Positions 9,570-48,747 of a stretch of DNA of 64,000 bases are shown here, in pieces. The stretch's first letter is position 1; every line of letters begins with the position of its first letter. The DNA is from a virus. Taxonomy: Duplodnaviria; Caudoviricetes. The notes below the pieces were generated by a model that saw only the letters and a program-made list of their open reading frames with translations, did not search any database and had not been told where the DNA came from. The DNA is taken from the IMG/VR virus record IMGVR_UViG_3300033182_000484, positions 681 to 64,680 of that record, one strand, 5' to 3'. Both the position numbers and the translations under genes were made by a program.

Positions 9570-10300
9570 CACGCGGCCAGTCGCGGCATGAGCGCCAGCT
9601 CGTACTTGGCCATGGGGTGATCCAGGAACCCGCGCGCGGTGACCCGGATCACCCCGAACCCGTGCGCCTTCCAGATCTCCGACACGACCGTCAGGCCGAA
9701 CGGCGACCGCAGGATCTGTCCCTTGGATCCGATGAACCGCATGTCGCCGCCGTGGCGGAAGTTCATCGTCCAGAGCGGAACCCGCGCGACCGGATCCGCG
9801 AGGTTCACGTAGCGCCGCCACGTGATCGGATCCAGGATGTGCACCAGGGTGCCGTCGCCGACACGCGGCTGCCCGAACGTCACCAGGGCGCGGACCGCGC
9901 CCTTCTGGGTGTAGTGGATCGACGCGGCGGCCAGGACCGCCAGAGCGCCACCCAGGCTGTGTCCGGTGAAGATCACCGGCAGCTTGGTCACCTCGATCAG
10001 CGCACTCAGCTGCTCCCAGACTGGATCCAGCGCGGCCTTGAACCCGCGATGCACCTTCGCCGGGCCGAGCGTGTGTGCCTCGGTCTTGCGGAACCGAATG
10101 TCGGACCGGAGGTCTCGGAGGCTCGTGGGCTCTGTGCCCCGGAACGCGATCACCAGGGCGTCGTCATGGATGAACCCGTAGGCCTCGGTGCCCTGGGCAT
10201 GGATGACGGCCACCTCCACGCCGGACGCCTCTCGGACCTCCGCTGGGTCCTTGTAGGCCAGCGCCGAGTAGCGGGCGAGGAGGTGGTCGTCGATCACCAT
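9569..10300 (-). CDS. Class 3 lipase (alpha/beta hydrolase)
   Basis: IAFRGTE, VHRGF, TGHSLGGALA nucleophile elbow, TFGQPRVG, DPVARVP, DH..Y. Confidence 0.93.
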   Translation of the reverse strand: MVIDDHLLARYSALAYKDPAEVREASGVEVAVIHAQGTEAYGFIHDDALVIAFRGTEPTSLRDLRSDIRFRKTEAHTLGPAKVHRGFKAALDPVWEQLSALIEVTKLPVIFTGHSLGGALAVLAAASIHYTQKGAVRALVTFGQPRVGDGTLVHILDPITWRRYVNLADPVARVPLWTMNFRHGGDMRFIGSKGQILRSPFGLTVVSEIWKAHGFGVIRVTARGFLDHPMAKYELALMPRLAA

Positions 10301-36262: not shown

Positions 36263-38779
36263 TCAGAAGTCCCTCATTCCAGGCATTGGCCTGTACGCTG
36301 GAGCGGGACGTCGGCGGGGGCTTACCGTGCCCCCGCGATATAGGTCTCCTGGGCCGTCAGCACCCGACCGTGCTGCGCTTGCTCCTGGTCCGCCACCCCC
36401 AAGCGCCGAAGCTCTTCCCGCAACATGCGAGCTGAGGGGCTGTCCGAACCGCTCCGCTGGATTGACTTTTGCAGTCTCGCCTCCAGCCGCTCCCGGTAGG
36501 AAATCGTCATAGCTCTCCTTCCCGGCGACCAGCGTGTCAAAATGCGTCAATTCGGAATGAATGACGCCGTCAAGGCCGCCTACGGCATCGGCGATCCTAT
36601 CAAACAGCTCTTCTTTCTCCAACATCAAACCTTGCAGGACCTCCGGGTCAGCCATGGCGGCTCTCGCGCCCTCGTCGAACCGGGAATCGATCTCCGGGAT
36701 CCACTGCATGCGCAGGCCGACGTAGCCTTCCGGGTCCGCGCCGCCCGCTGACTTCACGTCGTGGCGCAGGTCGACGGTCAACGTGAGGCCGTCGGCCCCT
36801 TCGTCGTTGATCGTCTGAATGATTTCCTTCGCCTCCTCCAGATCCTTCGGTGTGCGAAATGCCACAGACAGGCCTGGGCGGGCATTCGGGTTGTTCATGA
36901 CCTCGTGCGACGGCACGATTCGCGACACGAACGCGTCGGTCTGCCCGGCGTCCTTGGCCATCTGGAACACCCGCTGGGTGAACTGGTTCGCATCGAACTG
37001 CGACGGGTCCGCCACCACCTCGACGTCGAATGCTCGCTCGGCATCACCGGCGTACAGGCCCTGGGTCGGCTGGACCTTCACCACGTTCACGCCTGGGGTG
37101 CGGGTCAGGCCGTCCAGCAGCTCCTCGCGCGCGACCTCCTGGGCCGCGTCGGTCGGCACGGTGTCCTGAGTGATCGAGATCCCGGCCTGCCACGCGGACT
37201 GCGGGTTGGCGTCCAGCTGCTGCTCGAACGATCCGCCCTCGCCCTCCTTGGACGTCCAGTTGTTCTCGGTCCAGTGTTCCTTCTCGCGGAACCACATCAT
37301 CGCCTGAACGTCGTCCTGGCCGAGCATTTCGCCCTCGCGCAGCCCGGCGGCCTCGCGGAACGCCGGATCCGCGTTCAGCCGGTCGGTCAGATCCGCGATG
37401 GCCTTCTGGCCGAACCCGAACTCGCCGGTAGCATCGAACCGGCCTGCCTCGGCGGCCTCGCGCGTCACGTTGCCGGTCACGGCCTGCTCCATGCGCGGGG
37501 GCACCCGCTTGCCACCGGCTAGCCGCTGCATCATGCGCGCGGCCCAAACATCGATCGTCGGCTGCGTCGAGAACCCGCCCAGGTTCCCGGCGAAGTTCTT
37601 GGTCTTCGGCTTGCTGCCAGCCTGAGGCGTGCGCCACACGCCGGAGGCCAGCAGCGAATCCATGATGGGCATCGTGTTGATGCCGAACTTGGTGCCGTTC
37701 TCCTTGCGGATGATCGGATAGTTCTCGGGATCCTGCTCGTGGCGCTTCATGTACTCCTTCGGCCCGATTCCGTCCTCCTTCGCCTTGGCGTACTTCGCCA
37801 AGGTGTCGTCGAACTCGCCCTTGGAGAATCGGCGCATGGCCTGATTCGCCAGCGCCCAGTTTTCCTTCACGTTGGTCTGCGCGGAGCTGGCCCCCAGGGT
37901 GTCGACCAGGAGATCGCCCAGGCCGCCGTACTCTTCACGGAACCGGTGCCGGACGTTCTTGTACCAGCCCGCCTGCCGGAAGATCGTCAGCGCATTCGGG
38001 TCGCCCCTGCGCGCGCGCTCGGCCAGCTCATGGAACTCGGTGTGGGCCTTCTTGGCGACCTTGTCCGGCGTCGACAGCTTGTTGAACCCGTAGGCCGCCT
38101 TCTTCCACTCCAGCTTGCCGTCCTTCACCCGGGGCTCGGACATCGGCATCCACCCGTCAGACACGGGGTGGGCCTTCTTGGCGTTCTGGATATCGGCTGA
38201 GAACTTCTTCCGCTTTGCCTTGTCGGTCGTCGCAGCATTGATCACTGCGCGCTCCTCGGGCGTGACCCTCGCGGTCTTCACGGTCGATCGAGCACCGCGC
38301 TTGACGTTCATCGTGTGACCGGCACTCGCGATGTCATCGACGATCGACGGGTTCAGGACATCGTCCACCGCCTTCGCCCCGGCGCGCAGGAACCGCTTGC
38401 CGCCCTTCACCAGGACACTCGGTGCGCCCGCGACGGTCGCGCCCACGCCGATGCTGTTGATCAGATCTGGGTTCGCGAGCCAGTCGTCAATGGCGGCCCC
38501 GCCGCCGACGTAGGGCACGAAGTCCGCAACGCCCACCTCTCCGGGCAAGCCGGATCCCGGTCCCCCTGCCATGGTCTGGGCCGCGTTGCCTGGGAGGCCG
38601 GACAGGGCGCTGGTCAGCGCCCCTCGTGCGGTGGTCGGCGCTGCCGTCGCTGCAGCCGGAGCTGGCGCGGCGCGCGCGGCGAGATAATTCGGATCGGACG
38701 GAGACGGCATCACGGACGCGCGCACGGCGGCGTCGATGTCGGCTGGAATTGGCGCATATGACGGACGGCTGCGTGCCAT
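36263..38779 (-). CDS. Large protein between terminase and portal with a DNA-glycosylase-like (DUF7178-like) central domain
   Basis: WY..GASSAQT.V..N..A, KT.NF..NL.G..TIDVWAAR, DDVQAMMW motifs. Confidence 0.6.
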   Translation of the reverse strand: MARSRPSYAPIPADIDAAVRASVMPSPSDPNYLAARAAPAPAAATAAPTTARGALTSALSGLPGNAAQTMAGGPGSGLPGEVGVADFVPYVGGGAAIDDWLANPDLINSIGVGATVAGAPSVLVKGGKRFLRAGAKAVDDVLNPSIVDDIASAGHTMNVKRGARSTVKTARVTPEERAVINAATTDKAKRKKFSADIQNAKKAHPVSDGWMPMSEPRVKDGKLEWKKAAYGFNKLSTPDKVAKKAHTEFHELAERARRGDPNALTIFRQAGWYKNVRHRFREEYGGLGDLLVDTLGASSAQTNVKENWALANQAMRRFSKGEFDDTLAKYAKAKEDGIGPKEYMKRHEQDPENYPIIRKENGTKFGINTMPIMDSLLASGVWRTPQAGSKPKTKNFAGNLGGFSTQPTIDVWAARMMQRLAGGKRVPPRMEQAVTGNVTREAAEAGRFDATGEFGFGQKAIADLTDRLNADPAFREAAGLREGEMLGQDDVQAMMWFREKEHWTENNWTSKEGEGGSFEQQLDANPQSAWQAGISITQDTVPTDAAQEVAREELLDGLTRTPGVNVVKVQPTQGLYAGDAERAFDVEVVADPSQFDANQFTQRVFQMAKDAGQTDAFVSRIVPSHEVMNNPNARPGLSVAFRTPKDLEEAKEIIQTINDEGADGLTLTVDLRHDVKSAGGADPEGYVGLRMQWIPEIDSRFDEGARAAMADPEVLQGLMLEKEELFDRIADAVGGLDGVIHSELTHFDTLVAGKESYDDFLPGAAGGETAKVNPAERFGQPLSSHVAGRASALGGGGPGASAARSGADGPGDLYRGGTVSPRRRPAPAYRPMPGMRDF

Positions 38780-38858
38780 GCTTCGCCTCACGTTCTAGCC
38801 CAGTGTCGCCTCCAGCACTAGATCGTGGTCACGAAGATGCCCGCGACACCGTGATCCG

Positions 38859-43341: not shown

Positions 43342-43635
43342 TTACGCTTGCTCGACATCCAACTTCTCCCTCTCGGCGATGGCGTCCACCAGGACACCGT
43401 TCAGCCGCTCGACTTCCAACATCCGGCGGCAGTGCATCTCGACCCGGGTCTCCTCGGGCTGGTGCGGGCTCGTCAGCCACTGCTGGGCCGACGCCGTCAC
43501 CTGCTCGATCGACTTGCGGGTCCGCTCGATCTTCAGATCCAGGTTCCGCAGCTGCGTCTCGCGGGACCAGATCGGACGACGGCCACGCAGAGTGTCGTAG
43601 CGCAGTTCGTCAGCAGCGGTGAAATTCCAAGCCAT
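43342..43635 (-). CDS. Hypothetical coiled-coil protein
   Basis: GGAGGCGA RBS after the leftward promoter. Confidence 0.65.
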   Translation of the reverse strand: MAWNFTAADELRYDTLRGRRPIWSRETQLRNLDLKIERTRKSIEQVTASAQQWLTSPHQPEETRVEMHCRRMLEVERLNGVLVDAIAEREKLDVEQA

Positions 43636-43659
43636 GATCGCCTCCTCGTTTGATCTCCA

Positions 43660-43770
43660 GGCATTCTACATGAACGTGGCCACATGTCCAGAACTATTTC
43701 ACAATTTTTGTGCACTTTGTTGTTGACGTCCTCGGGGTGCATCTCTACAATGTGCGTAGATTGATTGGAG
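43660..43770. promoter_or_regulatory. Divergent sigma70-like promoter pair
   Basis: Leftward TGGACA-N16-TAGAAT (43690-43663) with a box in the spacer; rightward TTGACG-N17-TACAAT (43723-43751). Confidence 0.82.
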
Positions 43771-43777
43771 GCGACCA

Positions 43778-44665
43778 ATGACCCAGTATTTCTCCCGTGA
43801 CGGCGTCGAGCTGAAAGACAGCAACGTCGGCCTGCTGCGCGGCGGCAACATCCAGGTGCTCTGGAACACCGCCGACGGCACCACCATCCAGTATCTGTGG
43901 GATCGTCCCTGCAGCCGTTGCGGCGGCGCGGGCGGTGCCGACAAGTGGGCGCACACCGGCTGGAAGTGCTTCGACTGCGGTGGCAGCGGCAAGCACATCC
44001 ACGGCGCGAAGAAGCTGAAAGGCTACAGCGCCGAGAAGCTGGAGCAGCTGAACGCCACGCAGGCGAAGCGCCGCGAGAAGGCCGCCGCGAAGCGTGAGGC
44101 CGATGCTGCCGCCGCCAAGCGCGCCGCCGAGGCCGCCCTGGCCGAGCGCCTGGAAGACGACGCCCTGCTGCGGCAGATCCGCGACCACGCCGACCAGGAC
44201 GGCATCCTGGCCGACTTCTGGACCCAGGTGTCCGAGCGCAACCGCGAGCTGACCGACCGGCAGCGCGAGTTCGCCCGCACCCTGATCGAGCGTGTGCGCG
44301 AGAACGCGATCAAGGCGAAGGCGAAGGCCGAGGCCGAGGCCGCCATCGAGCGCCTGAACGCCGAGGGCGGTCACGTCGGATCCATCGGCGACCGGATCGA
44401 GATCGACGGCGTCGTCGAAGACGTCATCGCGTTCCGCAGCCACTTCACCTACAGCTACGGCGACAGCGGCGAGCGCCGCATTATCAAGATCCGCCAGGGT
44501 GCCGACCTGCTCGTGTGGTTCACGAGCCCCTGCGGCATCTACAAGGACCACATCGGTCAGCCGATCACCGGCAAGGGCACCGTCAAGAACCACGACGAGC
44601 GCGACGGCGTCCCCCAGACCGTTCTCACCCGCTGCAAGCTGCAGCTCACCGAGGTGGCGGCCTAG
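43778..44665 (+). CDS. Early protein with DnaJ-type zinc finger, coiled coil and OB-fold-like C-terminus
   Basis: CSRCGGAG..CFDCGGSG; C-terminal HVG.IG.R..KGTVK.H..GV.QT.LTR. Confidence 0.72.
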   Translation: MTQYFSRDGVELKDSNVGLLRGGNIQVLWNTADGTTIQYLWDRPCSRCGGAGGADKWAHTGWKCFDCGGSGKHIHGAKKLKGYSAEKLEQLNATQAKRREKAAAKREADAAAAKRAAEAALAERLEDDALLRQIRDHADQDGILADFWTQVSERNRELTDRQREFARTLIERVRENAIKAKAKAEAEAAIERLNAEGGHVGSIGDRIEIDGVVEDVIAFRSHFTYSYGDSGERRIIKIRQGADLLVWFTSPCGIYKDHIGQPITGKGTVKNHDERDGVPQTVLTRCKLQLTEVAA

Positions 44666-44740
44666 GCCGCCCCCACCACCCTCACAGTGAGATAGATTTT
44701 TTTCAGATCTATCTCACTGTGGATCCAGGAGGCGAACACC

Positions 44741-45208
44741 ATGGACAACAACACCATTCACTTCGTTGCGGCCAACGATGCGCCGGTCGAGACGTTCCTG
44801 CCCGACGGCCTGGAGCAGCCGGTCGTCAAGAACCCGCACTTGCCCATCTGCGGCCCGCTCGCGCTTGCCGTCGCCATCGGCGTCCCTGTCGAGGAGATGC
44901 TGGACGTCTACCGCGACCTCTTCAAGCTCGGCCCACGGTGGAAAGGCAGGACCCGCACCAACCAGCACGAAGCCGTCCTGAACGCCCTCGGCGTCGAGTG
45001 GACGCACCACGACCGCAAGGCGCGGGGCACGCTCGGCAAGTGGTTCGAGAACCATGGCGTCAAGGGCCGCACCTATCTGATCCGCACCGGCGGCCACCTC
45101 CAGGTCGTTCGCGACGGGTGGCGCTGCGATCAGAGCGGCTGGATGCCGGTCTGGTCCGATCGCTGCAAGCGCAAGCGGGTCACCCACGTCTACGAAGTCT
45201 TCATCTGA
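44741..45208 (+). CDS. Hypothetical protein, possibly papain-like fold
   Basis: CGP.ALA..GH..V.DG..DQ (Cys-His-Asp order); GGAGGCGAA RBS. Confidence 0.6.
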   Translation: MDNNTIHFVAANDAPVETFLPDGLEQPVVKNPHLPICGPLALAVAIGVPVEEMLDVYRDLFKLGPRWKGRTRTNQHEAVLNALGVEWTHHDRKARGTLGKWFENHGVKGRTYLIRTGGHLQVVRDGWRCDQSGWMPVWSDRCKRKRVTHVYEVFI

Positions 45209-45219
45209 AAGGAACGATC

Positions 45220-45486
45220 ATGATTTACTGGACAACCACCAAAGAGGCCGCCGAGGCCAAGGCCGCCAAGATCGCCGAGACAATGACCGGCGTCGAGTTC
45301 GAGAACACCAAGGTCTACACCCGCTTCGTCGCCGAGCCATACCCCGACGGATCGTCGTTCGGCGGGATCACCCGGGACCGCGACGGCAACGTCACCTGGG
45401 CCGCCAAGTGGGGCGTCGTCGGCAAGTGGCGCTACCGCGACCGCCCCGACCTCCCGGAGTTCGGCGGCGCGTTCATGTCCGCCTGA
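45220..45486 (+). CDS. Hypothetical protein
   Basis: AAAGGA RBS; ends before a hairpin. Confidence 0.65.
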   Translation: MIYWTTTKEAAEAKAAKIAETMTGVEFENTKVYTRFVAEPYPDGSSFGGITRDRDGNVTWAAKWGVVGKWRYRDRPDLPEFGGAFMSA

Positions 45487-45495
45487 AACGCGCGA

Positions 45496-45521
45496 GGCCC
45501 GGCACGCTTCTGTGCCGGGCC
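45496..45521. terminator. 10-bp stem-loop at the convergence of arms
   Basis: GGCCCGGCAC-N6-GTGCCGGGCC. Confidence 0.6.
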
Positions 45522-45542
45522 CGTCCGTGCCAACTTCTGGGT

Positions 45543-45675
45543 GCATGAGGGGTTAGCGTTGGTCGGGAAATCAGGAGGGGATGCCGCCGCTACCTGCAGC
45601 CGGTCGCCGGAGGCGAATCCGATCCTTGGAGGGGATCATAACGACCGGGGCCCGACCAACGCTAACCTCACATGC
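45543..45675. ncRNA. Candidate structured RNA downstream of gcrA
   Basis: 17-bp perfect inverted repeat (45551-45567/45651-45667) enclosing inner stems and three GGAGG/CCTCC motifs. Confidence 0.5.
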
Positions 45676-46144
45676 CCATCGTCAGCCTCCCTTTTCTCAT
45701 GGCGCGCTTGATCTTGCGACGTCGCGCGGCGGCCTGCGATGGCGTCAAATATGCCCGAGCGTGGTGCTCGGCGCAATACGTTGATCGCTCCCCGCCATCC
45801 TTGGTCGTGACCTTCTCGCCGCAGTAGTACGCGTTCGCCGGATCCTGGAGCGGGTCGCCCTCGATCCAGCAGCACCGGCTCGGCGGCGGCGGATCGTTCT
45901 TCAGCTCGTAGGGCCGCCTGCCAGGGCGATACGGTTGGGCCACCCTGACGCCGCCCAGGGCCGCGCCAGCGAGCGATGCGGGCCTCTTCCGGCTCGGCAG
46001 CCCCAGGCGCGCCTTCCGGCCCACCACGGCGTTCCTGGACGTCTCCATCACCACGCCGATCTGGGTGATGCTCAGGCCCTGCTCCCACAGGTCCTTCAGC
46101 AGCTGGTCGCGCTCCGGCGTCCAGGGACGGATCGTCTCGGACAT
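45668..46144 (-). CDS. gcrA: GcrA-family cell-cycle transcription regulator
   Basis: WT.ER..LK.LW..GLS..QI..SRNAVVG..RLGL N-terminal HTH; CxWxxGDP..YCG..YC.EH..AY C-terminus. Confidence 0.9.
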   Translation of the reverse strand: MSETIRPWTPERDQLLKDLWEQGLSITQIGVVMETSRNAVVGRKARLGLPSRKRPASLAGAALGGVRVAQPYRPGRRPYELKNDPPPPSRCCWIEGDPLQDPANAYYCGEKVTTKDGGERSTYCAEHHARAYLTPSQAAARRRKIKRAMRKGRLTMGM

Positions 46145-47139
46145 CACCGCCTCCCCAACATCTTGGCCATGATCGCGGCCTTCTGTTTCGTCTCCATGTC
46201 GCGCTTGGCATCCTCGGGCCCGTACGACCCCTCGCCGCGCTGGAACGGCGTGCCGCTCGGCTTGGTGCTGTCGACGCTGAAATACCGCACCGACCCGGTG
46301 CCGGTGGCCACCGCGTCCCTGGCCACGGCGTCGAGCCGGTCGCGGTACATCTTCGTCAGCTGCTTCTGCAGGCCCTCGATCATCCGGCCATGGCTGACGC
46401 CTGGGCCCTCCTTCTGCAGCTCCGCCTGCACCGTGTCGAGGATGTAGTCGACCTTCTGGCCGTGCTGCCGCGCGCCGACCTCGCCGAACACCGGCACCTC
46501 GCCCGTGTAGCCCGGGCCCGTGTGCTCTGGATCCGGCGTGTCGATCTTGATCGTGGATCCGTCGCCCAGGACCAGCTTGCTGTTGTCGGGCTCGACCCTG
46601 GCCGCACCCGTCCGCAGCACGTCAGGTCGCAGCAGCTTGCCGCCGAATCCCGCCCACTGATTCTGCTCGCGCATGGCCGCCTGGAACCGGCCCTTGGCCG
46701 ACACGGACATGCCGGTGATGTCGAACATGGCCGGGCGCTCACGCATGGCCGCACGCTGCATCAGACGCGCGCCAGCCTGCAGAGGCTGGGTGACGCACGG
46801 CGGCTCGTCGCCATCCTCGATCCGCTCCCGGACCATGCCGCAGGTCTCGCAGCGGTCGGTGTAGATCGAATACGCCCGGCACGGCCTGACGATCCGGTCA
46901 CCGACCGGCGCGACGGTCAGCGCCGAGTCCAGCTCATAGGAGCGAACCCTGCCCCTCTCGGTGGTGCGGAATGAGAGCCGGGTCGTCTCGATGACGCTCC
47001 CGATGCTCCCCCTCGGCGGTGGGGCCGAGCTGGGGGATATCGCCTCGAAAATGTTCATTAGCCAGTCGCTCGGCAGCCCGTTCGGGACGCCAGTGACCCC
47101 AGCCATCGCCTGAACCATCCCGGCCCGAGTGATCGCCAT
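46144..47139 (-). CDS. Hypothetical protein (start uncertain; overlaps the MTase ORF)
   Basis: 331-aa ORF with GGAGG RBS; internal CxxC. Confidence 0.55.
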   Translation of the reverse strand: MAITRAGMVQAMAGVTGVPNGLPSDWLMNIFEAISPSSAPPPRGSIGSVIETTRLSFRTTERGRVRSYELDSALTVAPVGDRIVRPCRAYSIYTDRCETCGMVRERIEDGDEPPCVTQPLQAGARLMQRAAMRERPAMFDITGMSVSAKGRFQAAMREQNQWAGFGGKLLRPDVLRTGAARVEPDNSKLVLGDGSTIKIDTPDPEHTGPGYTGEVPVFGEVGARQHGQKVDYILDTVQAELQKEGPGVSHGRMIEGLQKQLTKMYRDRLDAVARDAVATGTGSVRYFSVDSTKPSGTPFQRGEGSYGPEDAKRDMETKQKAAIMAKMLGRR

Positions 47140-47767
47140 CTTCCGCCTCCTTCTCGATGTGCATCAGCCCCAGGCGCGGCGTGAACGGGTTCCAGTCCCA
47201 GATGTACCACGCGTGGTGCGTCGTCGAATTATCCTTGGATCCGGCCTTGCCTGCAAACCATTCGATCCGTCGGCACAGCGTCAGCTTGCACTTCCAGGCC
47301 GGATGCCGGTCGAGCAGGTCCTGGCGACCGCTCGCGCAATCCCACTCGTGCGGCAACAGCATGGCGACCATCGACGACGGCCACGCCATGTCGAGCGCGC
47401 GCCGGACAAACCGCTCGCTGTTTGTGTACGGCGGGTTCGTCACGATCGACCGCGCGTTCACGATGCCGTCGGGCTGCAGGCCATTCAGCTGTCTGTTGAA
47501 GATGTCCCAGAACTCGACGCTCGGGTTGTCCGGCGCGACGTCGGTGGCGCGCACCATCCGCAGCGAACCCCAGGGCTTGCCGTTCTGACGGCTGACCCAC
47601 TCGGCCTGCAGCAGGGCCGCCATCTGCCCGTCGGCTGCGCACGGCTCCCAGATCGGCCAGCGGAGTTTCCAGTTGCGGATCAGCGCCATCGTCACCCAGG
47701 CAGGCGTCAGGTACTTGTCCTTGGCGATCCGGTTGTACTGCGGGGCGTAGCGGGGCATCACCATCAC
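46934..47767 (-). CDS. Phage DNA amino-methyltransferase (N6-adenine type)
   Basis: D.Y.TP.W, IWEPCAADG (motif I), IVTNPPY (motif IV), HAWYIW. Confidence 0.85.
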   Translation of the reverse strand: MMVMPRYAPQYNRIAKDKYLTPAWVTMALIRNWKLRWPIWEPCAADGQMAALLQAEWVSRQNGKPWGSLRMVRATDVAPDNPSVEFWDIFNRQLNGLQPDGIVNARSIVTNPPYTNSERFVRRALDMAWPSSMVAMLLPHEWDCASGRQDLLDRHPAWKCKLTLCRRIEWFAGKAGSKDNSTTHHAWYIWDWNPFTPRLGLMHIEKEAEDGDHSGRDGSGDGWGHWRPERAAERLANEHFRGDIPQLGPTAEGEHRERHRDDPALIPHHREGQGSLL

Positions 47768-47961
47768 AGATCCGCCTCATGCTTGAACTCACCGCACCAG
47801 TCGCTCGCGGGGATGTAATCCCGATACCCAGTTCCTTTCGGGAACCGCTTACAGAACACGTACGGGCCCTCGGCGGCGAAGTCAGGATCCCACATCGGAT
47901 TCGTCTCGACATCCTCGCGGAAGTAGCAGTAGCCGCAGGCCTCACCTCGACGCCCGGCCAT
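47764..47961 (-). CDS. Small Cys-rich protein
   Basis: CxxCxF..CxRFP..DWCGEF. Confidence 0.7.
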   Translation of the reverse strand: MAGRRGEACGYCYFREDVETNPMWDPDFAAEGPYVFCKRFPKGTGYRDYIPASDWCGEFKHEADL

Positions 47962-48650: not shown

Positions 48651-48747
48651 CTTCGCCTCCCTAGGAAACGGGGCGCGGCACCCGTCGGCACCGCGCCCCT
48701 GCGTCCTGCGTCTGATCAACCGCCTGTCACGGCGGCCCAGTCACGCC

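Follow-up and report, generated by a model that had tools for sequence, protein, structure and literature searches.

What is the long inverted repeat directly behind the gcrA gene of an uncultured phage, from which strand is it made, and what could it do? We addressed these questions in a window of 64,000 nucleotides (nt), the whole stretch analysed, which covers nearly all of the 64,680-bp virus record IMGVR_UViG_3300033182_000484; the record carries direct terminal repeats. An earlier note, made from the letters alone, had described a perfect 17-bp inverted repeat that starts at the gcrA stop and encloses an inner stem and small hairpins, and had read it as a branched RNA displaying Shine-Dalgarno or anti-Shine-Dalgarno motifs. 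That description held. Each strand of the window contains the 17-mer GGTTAGCGTTGGTCGGG exactly once (45551-45567 on the plus and 45651-45667 on the minus strand), and the right arm of the repeat abuts the stop codon (45668-45670); 100 shuffles gave a mean of 0.26 matches at up to three mismatches. With 92% complementarity the repeat can be followed over 25 nt (45543-45567 with 45651-45675), leaving 83 nt between the arms. Folding energies were -80.7 kcal/mol on the plus strand (z -5.99) and -71.8 kcal/mol on the minus strand (z -5.36), none of 200 shuffles was as stable on either strand, and the inner stem CCGGTCG/CGACCGG and the small hairpins appeared in the minimum free energy and centroid folds of both.

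Read on the gcrA-sense (window minus) strand, the element is a closed three-way junction whose parts are listed in Table 1: a closing helix, an inner domain in which helix P2 surrounds hairpins 1 and 2, and hairpin 3. The closing helix has 25-27 bp with few mismatches, made up of 17 perfect core pairs and 7-8 outer pairs, and the 5' arm of the outer stem consists of the last gcrA codons and the stop (45668-45677). A covariance model of the element (R1) gave 132 bits here, whereas its second-best site in the window reached 17 bits, which marks the element as single copy.

The element is specific to a small clade of uncultured phages. Scans by exact pattern and by GcrA placed it in one other IMG/VR contig (L004, the same as L005) and in six metagenome loci; the GcrA protein and alignment scans returned four viral and seven metagenome loci, and six of the seven carry it. 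These finds represent two lineages beside the window, and there are three distinct element sequences in all. One type is identical in L004/L005, L009, L011, L012 and L014; the L010/L013 type differs at 0-1 nt in the element and at 30-37 of 486 nt in gcrA. The gene converging from downstream changes with the context, being an 88-amino-acid (aa) open reading frame (ORF) in the window, a 154-aa phrog_3754 homologue in L004 and a 289-aa homologue of window 43778-44665 in L010 and L013, and the block of gcrA, element and terminator is intact in all three contexts, directly behind gcrA. Exact-pattern scans of viral contigs found L004 only, and searches using the adjacent 155-aa and 295-aa proteins or the upstream terminator added nothing new. 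No such element stands behind gcrA at four loci with more distant GcrA (L006-L008 and L015), nor anywhere in the three more distant viral gcrA records searched. Among 401 sampled alphaproteobacterial genomes there were chance-level matches of 19-62 nt only, and the model scored below 20 bits on the eight loci fetched; a 17-mer scan of genome contigs returned at least 120 stretches with 17-21 nt in common with the element, chance matches that are uninformative on cellular genomes. A comparison with 50,697 cultured phage records gave no near relative, no DNA match and no GcrA match, the only cultured-phage matches being to a virion protein at 22-30%.

Where it occurs, the element is better conserved than gcrA itself. 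Between the window and L005 the gcrA coding sequence (CDS) is identical at 317 of 486 positions (65.2%), and the closing-helix core, P2, the hairpin-1 stem and hairpin 2 together differ at 3 of 74 columns, all of them pair-preserving: one compensatory pair, a G-C to A-U change in P2, and one wobble pair. That wobble pair is the single change in the 34 columns of the core arms and reads U-A in the window, U.G in L005 and L013 and U.C in L010. Loops, junctions, hairpin 3, the outer 3' arm and the spacer differ at 36 of 69 columns. Between L005 and L013, 30 gcrA positions differ (456/486 identical) and the element is identical throughout (114/114). Conservation begins about 15 nt ahead of the stop, the last 15 nt of the CDS matching L005 at 14 positions compared with 64.5% identity for the remaining CDS, and no promoter-sized conserved block lies upstream. 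No coding block common to the window and L004 exceeds 82.5% identity; the other stretches above that value are the 49-nt upstream terminator (96%) and a 35-nt off-synteny match (91%). This uneven pattern points to long-term constraint rather than to a recently exchanged neutral block. Standard pairs fill 97.5% of 244 pair cells; sliding the partners against each other lowers this to 38-51%. Energy and conserved architecture support the fold well, and the covariation statistics are weak, since only three variants are available. The element is real, conserved, structured and non-coding, and it is new to Rfam.

Several known identities were considered and rejected. Across 45000-46200, cmscan at E values up to 10 returned only Ms_AS-4 (E 3.3, 18.9 bits against a cut-off of 50), and the whole window gave no Rfam match at gathering scores, so the Rfam search proposed in the earlier note yielded no family. 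There is no tRNA or tmRNA in the window. The plus-strand ORFs at 45541-45711 and 45581-45784 match nothing in Pfam or PHROG, indels of 1-2 nt lie inside the element between the window and L005, and start codons are not conserved, which argues against a coding function. Read-through of the gcrA UGA in frame reaches a UAG two codons on. In both the window and L004 the closing helix lacks a T-run behind it, whichever strand is read, and the element is not itself a canonical terminator.

The symmetry of the repeat raises the possibility of a feature of the DNA itself, either a miniature inverted-repeat (MITE-like) scar, which the earlier note had named as the outcome that would overturn its proposal, or a site of recombination or replication that works through a cruciform. 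Terminal inverted repeats of 25 nt, symmetric folds of the two strands and invariant arms would all suit such a feature. Against this, the flanks are inverted and not direct, leaving no flanking direct repeat or target-site duplication; the element is a single copy in the 64.7-kb record and is fixed directly behind gcrA in three contexts; it is missing from the more distant gcrA phage records and has only chance-level counterparts in the sampled bacterial genomes; and the compensatory and wobble changes point to pairing in RNA. We find a DNA-level feature of either kind scarcely credible.

Gene order suggests the strand. gcrA is the final gene of a minus-strand unit that starts past a strong hairpin terminator (48664-48706) and contains small ORFs, a DNA methyltransferase (46934-47767, phrog_799), a 331-aa ORF and gcrA. 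Read in the gcrA sense, the stop codon is followed by the 137-nt element, an 18-nt spacer, a GC-rich hairpin and then CGCGCGUUUCA. A simple terminator scan of 44500-46500 returned no terminator-like site; this hairpin went unflagged because its U-tract is short. It is kept in all homologues, and one of its pairs runs from G-C in the window through G.U in L005 and L010 to A-U in L013, a series that fits the gcrA-sense strand. The consensus energy of the terminator is -25.2 kcal/mol in the gcrA sense compared with -19.0 in the opposite sense, and the U-tract is on the gcrA-sense strand only. Within the element, the U-A/U.G site of the closing helix, two constant U.G pairs in P2 and others likewise fit this strand, a count that leans towards the strand on which the structure was derived. 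The element is probably transcribed as the 3' untranslated region (UTR) of gcrA, as the layout of gene and terminator suggests.

A plus-strand operon at about 41.3-45.5 kb converges on the gcrA unit, and read-through from it may also reach the element. In one alternative the element would act as a barrier between the two units, an RNA or DNA hairpin that halts or slows plus-strand polymerases before they run antisense into gcrA. Its position exactly where the units meet and its strong folds on both strands suit this role, and the small terminator hairpin, having no U-tract on the plus strand, makes plus-strand read-through into the element plausible. However, neither strand has a T-run past the element, let alone a conserved one; the convergent gene differs between the contexts whereas the element remains beside gcrA; and a barrier leaves the conservation of the loop and hairpin-2 sequences unexplained. 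We therefore regard a barrier as improbable.

The motifs carried by the element allow a more specific proposal. On the plus strand GGAGGGGAT occurs at 45574 and 45628 and GGAGGCGAA at 45609; on the gcrA-sense strand these are C-rich, and UUCGCCUCC is the exact complement of GGAGGCGAA. All three CCUCC motifs listed in the earlier note are present in the window, and two of them are kept in homologues; the third, inside hairpin 3, is paired and not conserved. In the gcrA-sense RNA the CCUCC of the hairpin-1 loop has an opening energy of 0.0 kcal/mol and a mean unpaired probability of 0.98, and opening UUCGCCUCC costs 2.7 kcal/mol in the window and 0.8 kcal/mol in L005. Three GGAGG motifs on one strand within 133 nt occur at four plus-strand places (282 of 63,872 windows).

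The complement matters because GGAGGCGAA is a ribosome-binding site (RBS) of this phage, as the earlier note had noticed. Of its 16 copies in the window, 14 lie 4-8 nt before the ATG of an ORF of at least 50 aa, so that it serves 14 of the 57 GGAGG-type starts, mostly as GGAGGCGAA-N-ATG (spacer N(1-4)). These starts span 41309-62528 and all fall in the non-structural part of the genome, with 14 of 31 GGAGG-type starts at 41.3-63.6 kb using the 9-mer compared with none of 26 elsewhere (Fisher p 3.6e-5). Leaving aside copies that are simply antisense to these sites, the complement of GGAGGCGAA occurs at two places on both strands of the window (128 kb), the element and 36828. The latter GGAGGCGAA copy, the sole other one that is not an RBS, lies on the minus strand at 36828-36836 within a large structural-region ORF (36263-38791). 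All three non-element copies in L004 precede an ATG, as does one copy in L013; no GGAGGCGAA was found at the three more distant gcrA phage loci, whose samples span only 4-5 kb each. The RBS of gcrA itself in the window, GGAGGCGGU, is a near match to GGAGGCGAA. A canonical 16S 3' tail would leave positions 6 and 9 of GGAGGCGAA unpaired, and host rRNA may differ; all nine positions pair with the element.

We tentatively propose that the element is a regulatory RNA of the gcrA 3' UTR that pairs with GGAGGCGAA-type ribosome-binding sites. It would be made on the gcrA-sense strand, from the interval that separates the stop codon from the intrinsic terminator, and its inner domain would present two conserved anti-Shine-Dalgarno motifs, C(C)UCC in the hairpin-1 loop and UUCGCCUCC in hairpin 2. 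Pairing could take place either within the mRNA or through a small RNA cut off from the 3' UTR; the targets would be the GGAGGCGAA(N)ATG sites of the non-structural gene module and perhaps the site of gcrA itself, and as gcrA is expressed, pairing would reduce translation from these sites. The closing helix may give nuclease resistance or a processing site. With the UGA inside this helix, a terminating ribosome must open it, and folding and translation are therefore coupled. A wider version of this proposal, which we think rather unlikely, is that the gcrA transcript also carries an anti-RBS RNA imitating the anti-Shine-Dalgarno end of 16S rRNA, tuned through UUCGCCUCC to the extended GGAGGCGAA, so that GcrA and the co-encoded methyltransferase would switch transcription while the 3' UTR RNA shut off translation of the whole earlier module.

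The earlier note had also offered a plus-strand reading, a sponge for CsrA-like proteins or ribosomes. In this form the element would serve as a decoy: its GGAGGCGAA and GGAGG(G)GAU would soak up 30S subunits, a CsrA-like protein, or else a repressor of translation or a nuclease of the phage that recognises the module-specific RBS. The plus strand does fold slightly better, it has the 9-mer RBS in exact form but lacks a usable start codon after it, and the extended RBS could be a protein-binding site. Yet its three GGAGG motifs are mostly paired (mean unpaired probability 0.20-0.70) and cost 2.1-6.2 kcal/mol to open, hairpin 3 is lost in the plus-strand consensus, and the wobble sites of closing helix and terminator become A.C mismatches. 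No conserved plus-strand terminator or promoter was found and no Csr/Rsm model or other Rfam family matched, so that a sponge of the CsrB/RsmZ type was rejected and a plus-strand decoy of any kind appears very improbable. Of the two readings in the earlier note, the minus-strand one is the better, and it is partly supported: the order of stop, element and terminator in three contexts, the conservation, the exposed C-rich motifs and the exact, near-unique complementarity of UUCGCCUCC to the module-specific RBS all speak for it, with release of a small RNA and silencing as predictions. The likening to the cuckoo/ar14 small RNAs applies in principle only, as the features that define them are absent here.

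A number of observations weigh against the proposed pairing with ribosome-binding sites. The transcription of the element, its strand and any processed species are predictions from sequence; a search for RNA runs covering 43500-47800 returned none, which counts neither for nor against them. The element consensus is slightly more stable on the opposite strand (-70.3 compared with -64.6 kcal/mol), as are single-sequence folds (-77.0 compared with -70.4, and -72.4 compared with -69.6); the strand evidence from the element taken by itself is ambiguous, and the strand call therefore depends on context and two wobble sites. Two pairs are changed on both sides, a count reached by 35 of 500 shuffles, and the covariation comes from three distinct variants in two lineages. 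Part of UUCGCCUCC lies within a 3-bp stem, and the third CCUCC is lost in the homologues, which have CCCCCCA there. Duplex energies calculated blind to accessibility have medians of -28.2 kcal/mol for the 14 cognate starts and -28.9 kcal/mol for the 43 others and thus fail to tell the two sets apart, and nearly all phage genes have a GGAGG, which would give a CCUCC RNA little specificity beyond the 9-mer. The RBS and the element are both invariant among the phages found, so there is no co-variation between them to compare. Finally, the near-invariant arms of the helix fit recognition of that specific helix as well as they fit a pairing seed.

This last point leads to the main alternative, a cis-acting element for mRNA stability or processing, in which the closing helix would block 3' exonucleases, or would be an RNase III site whose cleavage strips gcrA mRNA of its protective 3' end, and would thereby set the level of GcrA, the C-rich motifs being incidental or structural. 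A 25-27-bp helix directly 3' of the CDS supplies the roughly two turns of double-stranded RNA that a sib-like site has, and arms with one change in 34 columns fit recognition of a specific helix by a protein. The last gcrA codons and the stop are inside the helix and conserved at the nucleotide level, so that translation termination and folding are physically linked. However, a stability hairpin needs neither an invariant 12-nt hairpin 2 nor an exact 9-nt complement of the RBS, which occurs non-trivially only twice in 128 kb. A plain hairpin (48664-48706) acts as terminator elsewhere in the phage; this shows that termination alone needs no such element, and it tells in favour of pairing with ribosome-binding sites. 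A purely stabilizing or processing role is possible in our view, if doubtful.

The proposed anti-RBS RNA resembles several known systems in part. According to PMC4615179, small RNAs of the cuckoo/RSs0680/ar14 family form 2-4 hairpins side by side, lack a multiloop and display CCUCCUCCC in the 9-27-nt loop of every hairpin. The element is not a member: it is a closed three-way junction with loops of 5-7 nt, CCUCCUCCC is absent from 45541-45677, and no Rfam covariance model matches. Its likeness to cuckoo, RSs0680 (CcsR) and ar14 is one of principle only, in that C-rich, anti-Shine-Dalgarno-like motifs are displayed in hairpin loops, and extends to an alphaproteobacterial setting, the host of the phage being probably alphaproteobacterial, judging solely by the presence of gcrA. 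Unlike these small RNAs, its hairpins are enclosed by a 25-bp helix and include a nested two-hairpin domain, its loops are CCUCCAA/CUCCA and UUCGCC, and it is phage-borne and complementary to the RBS of the phage itself.

A second comparison is with small RNAs derived from 3' UTRs. Such RNAs, among them CpxQ, SroC and the CcsR cluster, share the terminator of their parent mRNA. Like them, the element lies between a stop codon and a terminator on the same strand, is conserved above the level of the CDS and has no conserved promoter-sized block; it also has a conserved and accessible candidate seed, hairpin 2, with an opening energy of 0.8-2.7 kcal/mol and 9-nt complementarity to 14 of 57 starts, a computational assignment only. 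In contrast to these RNAs, it keeps its candidate seeds enclosed within a long helix and not in a single-stranded 5' stretch, it is encoded by a virulent-looking phage, and its processed form is putative.

In lambda, sib retroregulates int by way of RNase III, and T7 has RNase III processing sites; the element resembles both as a long double-stranded helix directly 3' of a phage regulatory gene, at a position from which it could govern the mRNA of that gene through its 3' end. The lambda site forms only in read-through transcripts, whereas the element lies upstream of the terminator and would therefore be part of every transcript; moreover, its helix caps a branched domain with conserved loops, and RNase III cleavage is putative here. 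CsrB/RsmZ sponges expose many GGA motifs in hairpin loops. The plus strand of the element is a structured RNA with several GGA motifs, yet there are only three, mostly paired, and it is the opposite strand that shows a conserved logic of transcription. The proposed shut-off of a module would be an RNA counterpart of the logic of T4 RegA/RegB. A limited literature search found no structured RNA behind a phage gcrA and no phage RNA aimed at the RBS of its own phage, which is not proof of absence.

Gene regulation by phage-encoded RNAs is poorly charted. If the proposed pairing with ribosome-binding sites is correct, a short 3' UTR domain would couple a transcriptional switch (GcrA and the methyltransferase) to a module-wide translational switch, and the non-structural genes would share, in their uniform 9-mer RBS, a regulatory address beyond a strong start signal. 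Even as a stability or RNase III element, it would be a new RNA motif, better conserved than the gene before it and deserving a family model built with more viromes.

Table 1. Parts of the gcrA 3' element and its immediate surroundings (window coordinates).
Feature	Positions	Strand	Evidence and remarks
Whole structured element, closed three-way junction, 137 nt	45541-45677	minus (gcrA-sense)	Folds of both strands; four-sequence consensus fold; covariance model R1
Core closing helix, 5' arm GGUUAGCGUUGGUCGGG	45651-45667	minus	Exact inverted repeat; directly past the stop codon; 17/17 identical in all homologues
Core closing helix, 3' arm CCCGACCAACGCUAACC	45551-45567	minus	Exact inverted repeat; one variable position
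Outer stem, 3' arm, non-coding, pairs with the end of the gcrA CDS	45541-45550	minus	Fold; 6/10 columns differ from L005; pairing partly kept
Inner domain, helix P2 (45640-45648 with 45600-45608) around hairpins 1 and 2	45600-45648	minus	Fold, consensus
Hairpin 1, GAUCC[CCUCCAA]GGAUC, 5-bp stem	45621-45637	minus	Loop 45626-45632 with CCUCC; CUCCA in homologues
Hairpin 2, GGA[UUCGCC]UCC	45609-45620	minus	Contains UUCGCCUCC (45609-45617); 12/12 identical in all homologues
Hairpin 3	45572-45594	minus	Variable base CAGG/CCUG (window), AUGG/CCAU (homologues); 5/23 columns differ
gcrA	45668-46147	minus	Pfam GcrA, E 1.1e-17; ORF list
Spacer between element and terminator	45523-45540	minus	Unconserved; 15/18 columns differ from L005, an 8-nt indel among them
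Intrinsic terminator of the gcrA unit	45484-45522	minus	Inverted repeat; GC-rich hairpin 45495-45522, then CGCGCGUUUCA on the gcrA-sense strand

The likely start of gcrA is the ATG at 46144, behind GGAGGCGGTG according to the RBS census. The invariant inner domain of the element (45609-45620 and 45621-45637) contains one GANTC site (GATTC) and two GATC sites. GANTC is the CcrM-type methylation motif; one GANTC per 137 nt is about the chance expectation at this base composition, so we attach no weight to it.

The match of the methyltransferase ORF to phrog_799 covers residues 8-194 of 277, and the ORF has no Pfam match at E 0.01. It overlaps the 331-aa ORF (46144-47139, minus strand) by 206 nt in a different frame; the 331-aa protein has an RBS of its own and an N-terminus homologous in L013. 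A genuine overlap, a frameshift or an error of sequencing could each account for this.

At 48664-48706 (minus strand) the terminator forms a strong hairpin, rich in GC and carrying a U-tract, with 96% identity to L004 10616-10664 across 49 nt. In the window it precedes the small ORFs, the methyltransferase, the 331-aa ORF and then gcrA, whereas its counterpart in L004 stands about 60 nt upstream of gcrA, and the intervening gene block is therefore missing there. On the other side of gcrA, the 88-aa ORF adjoining the terminator (45220-45486, plus strand) matches no family. In L004 (about 9853-9915) a deletion has left only its RBS region and last ~30 nt, and L010 and L013 carry neither this ORF nor the 155-aa gene; these losses identify the region downstream of the gcrA terminator as a hot spot of change in gene content.

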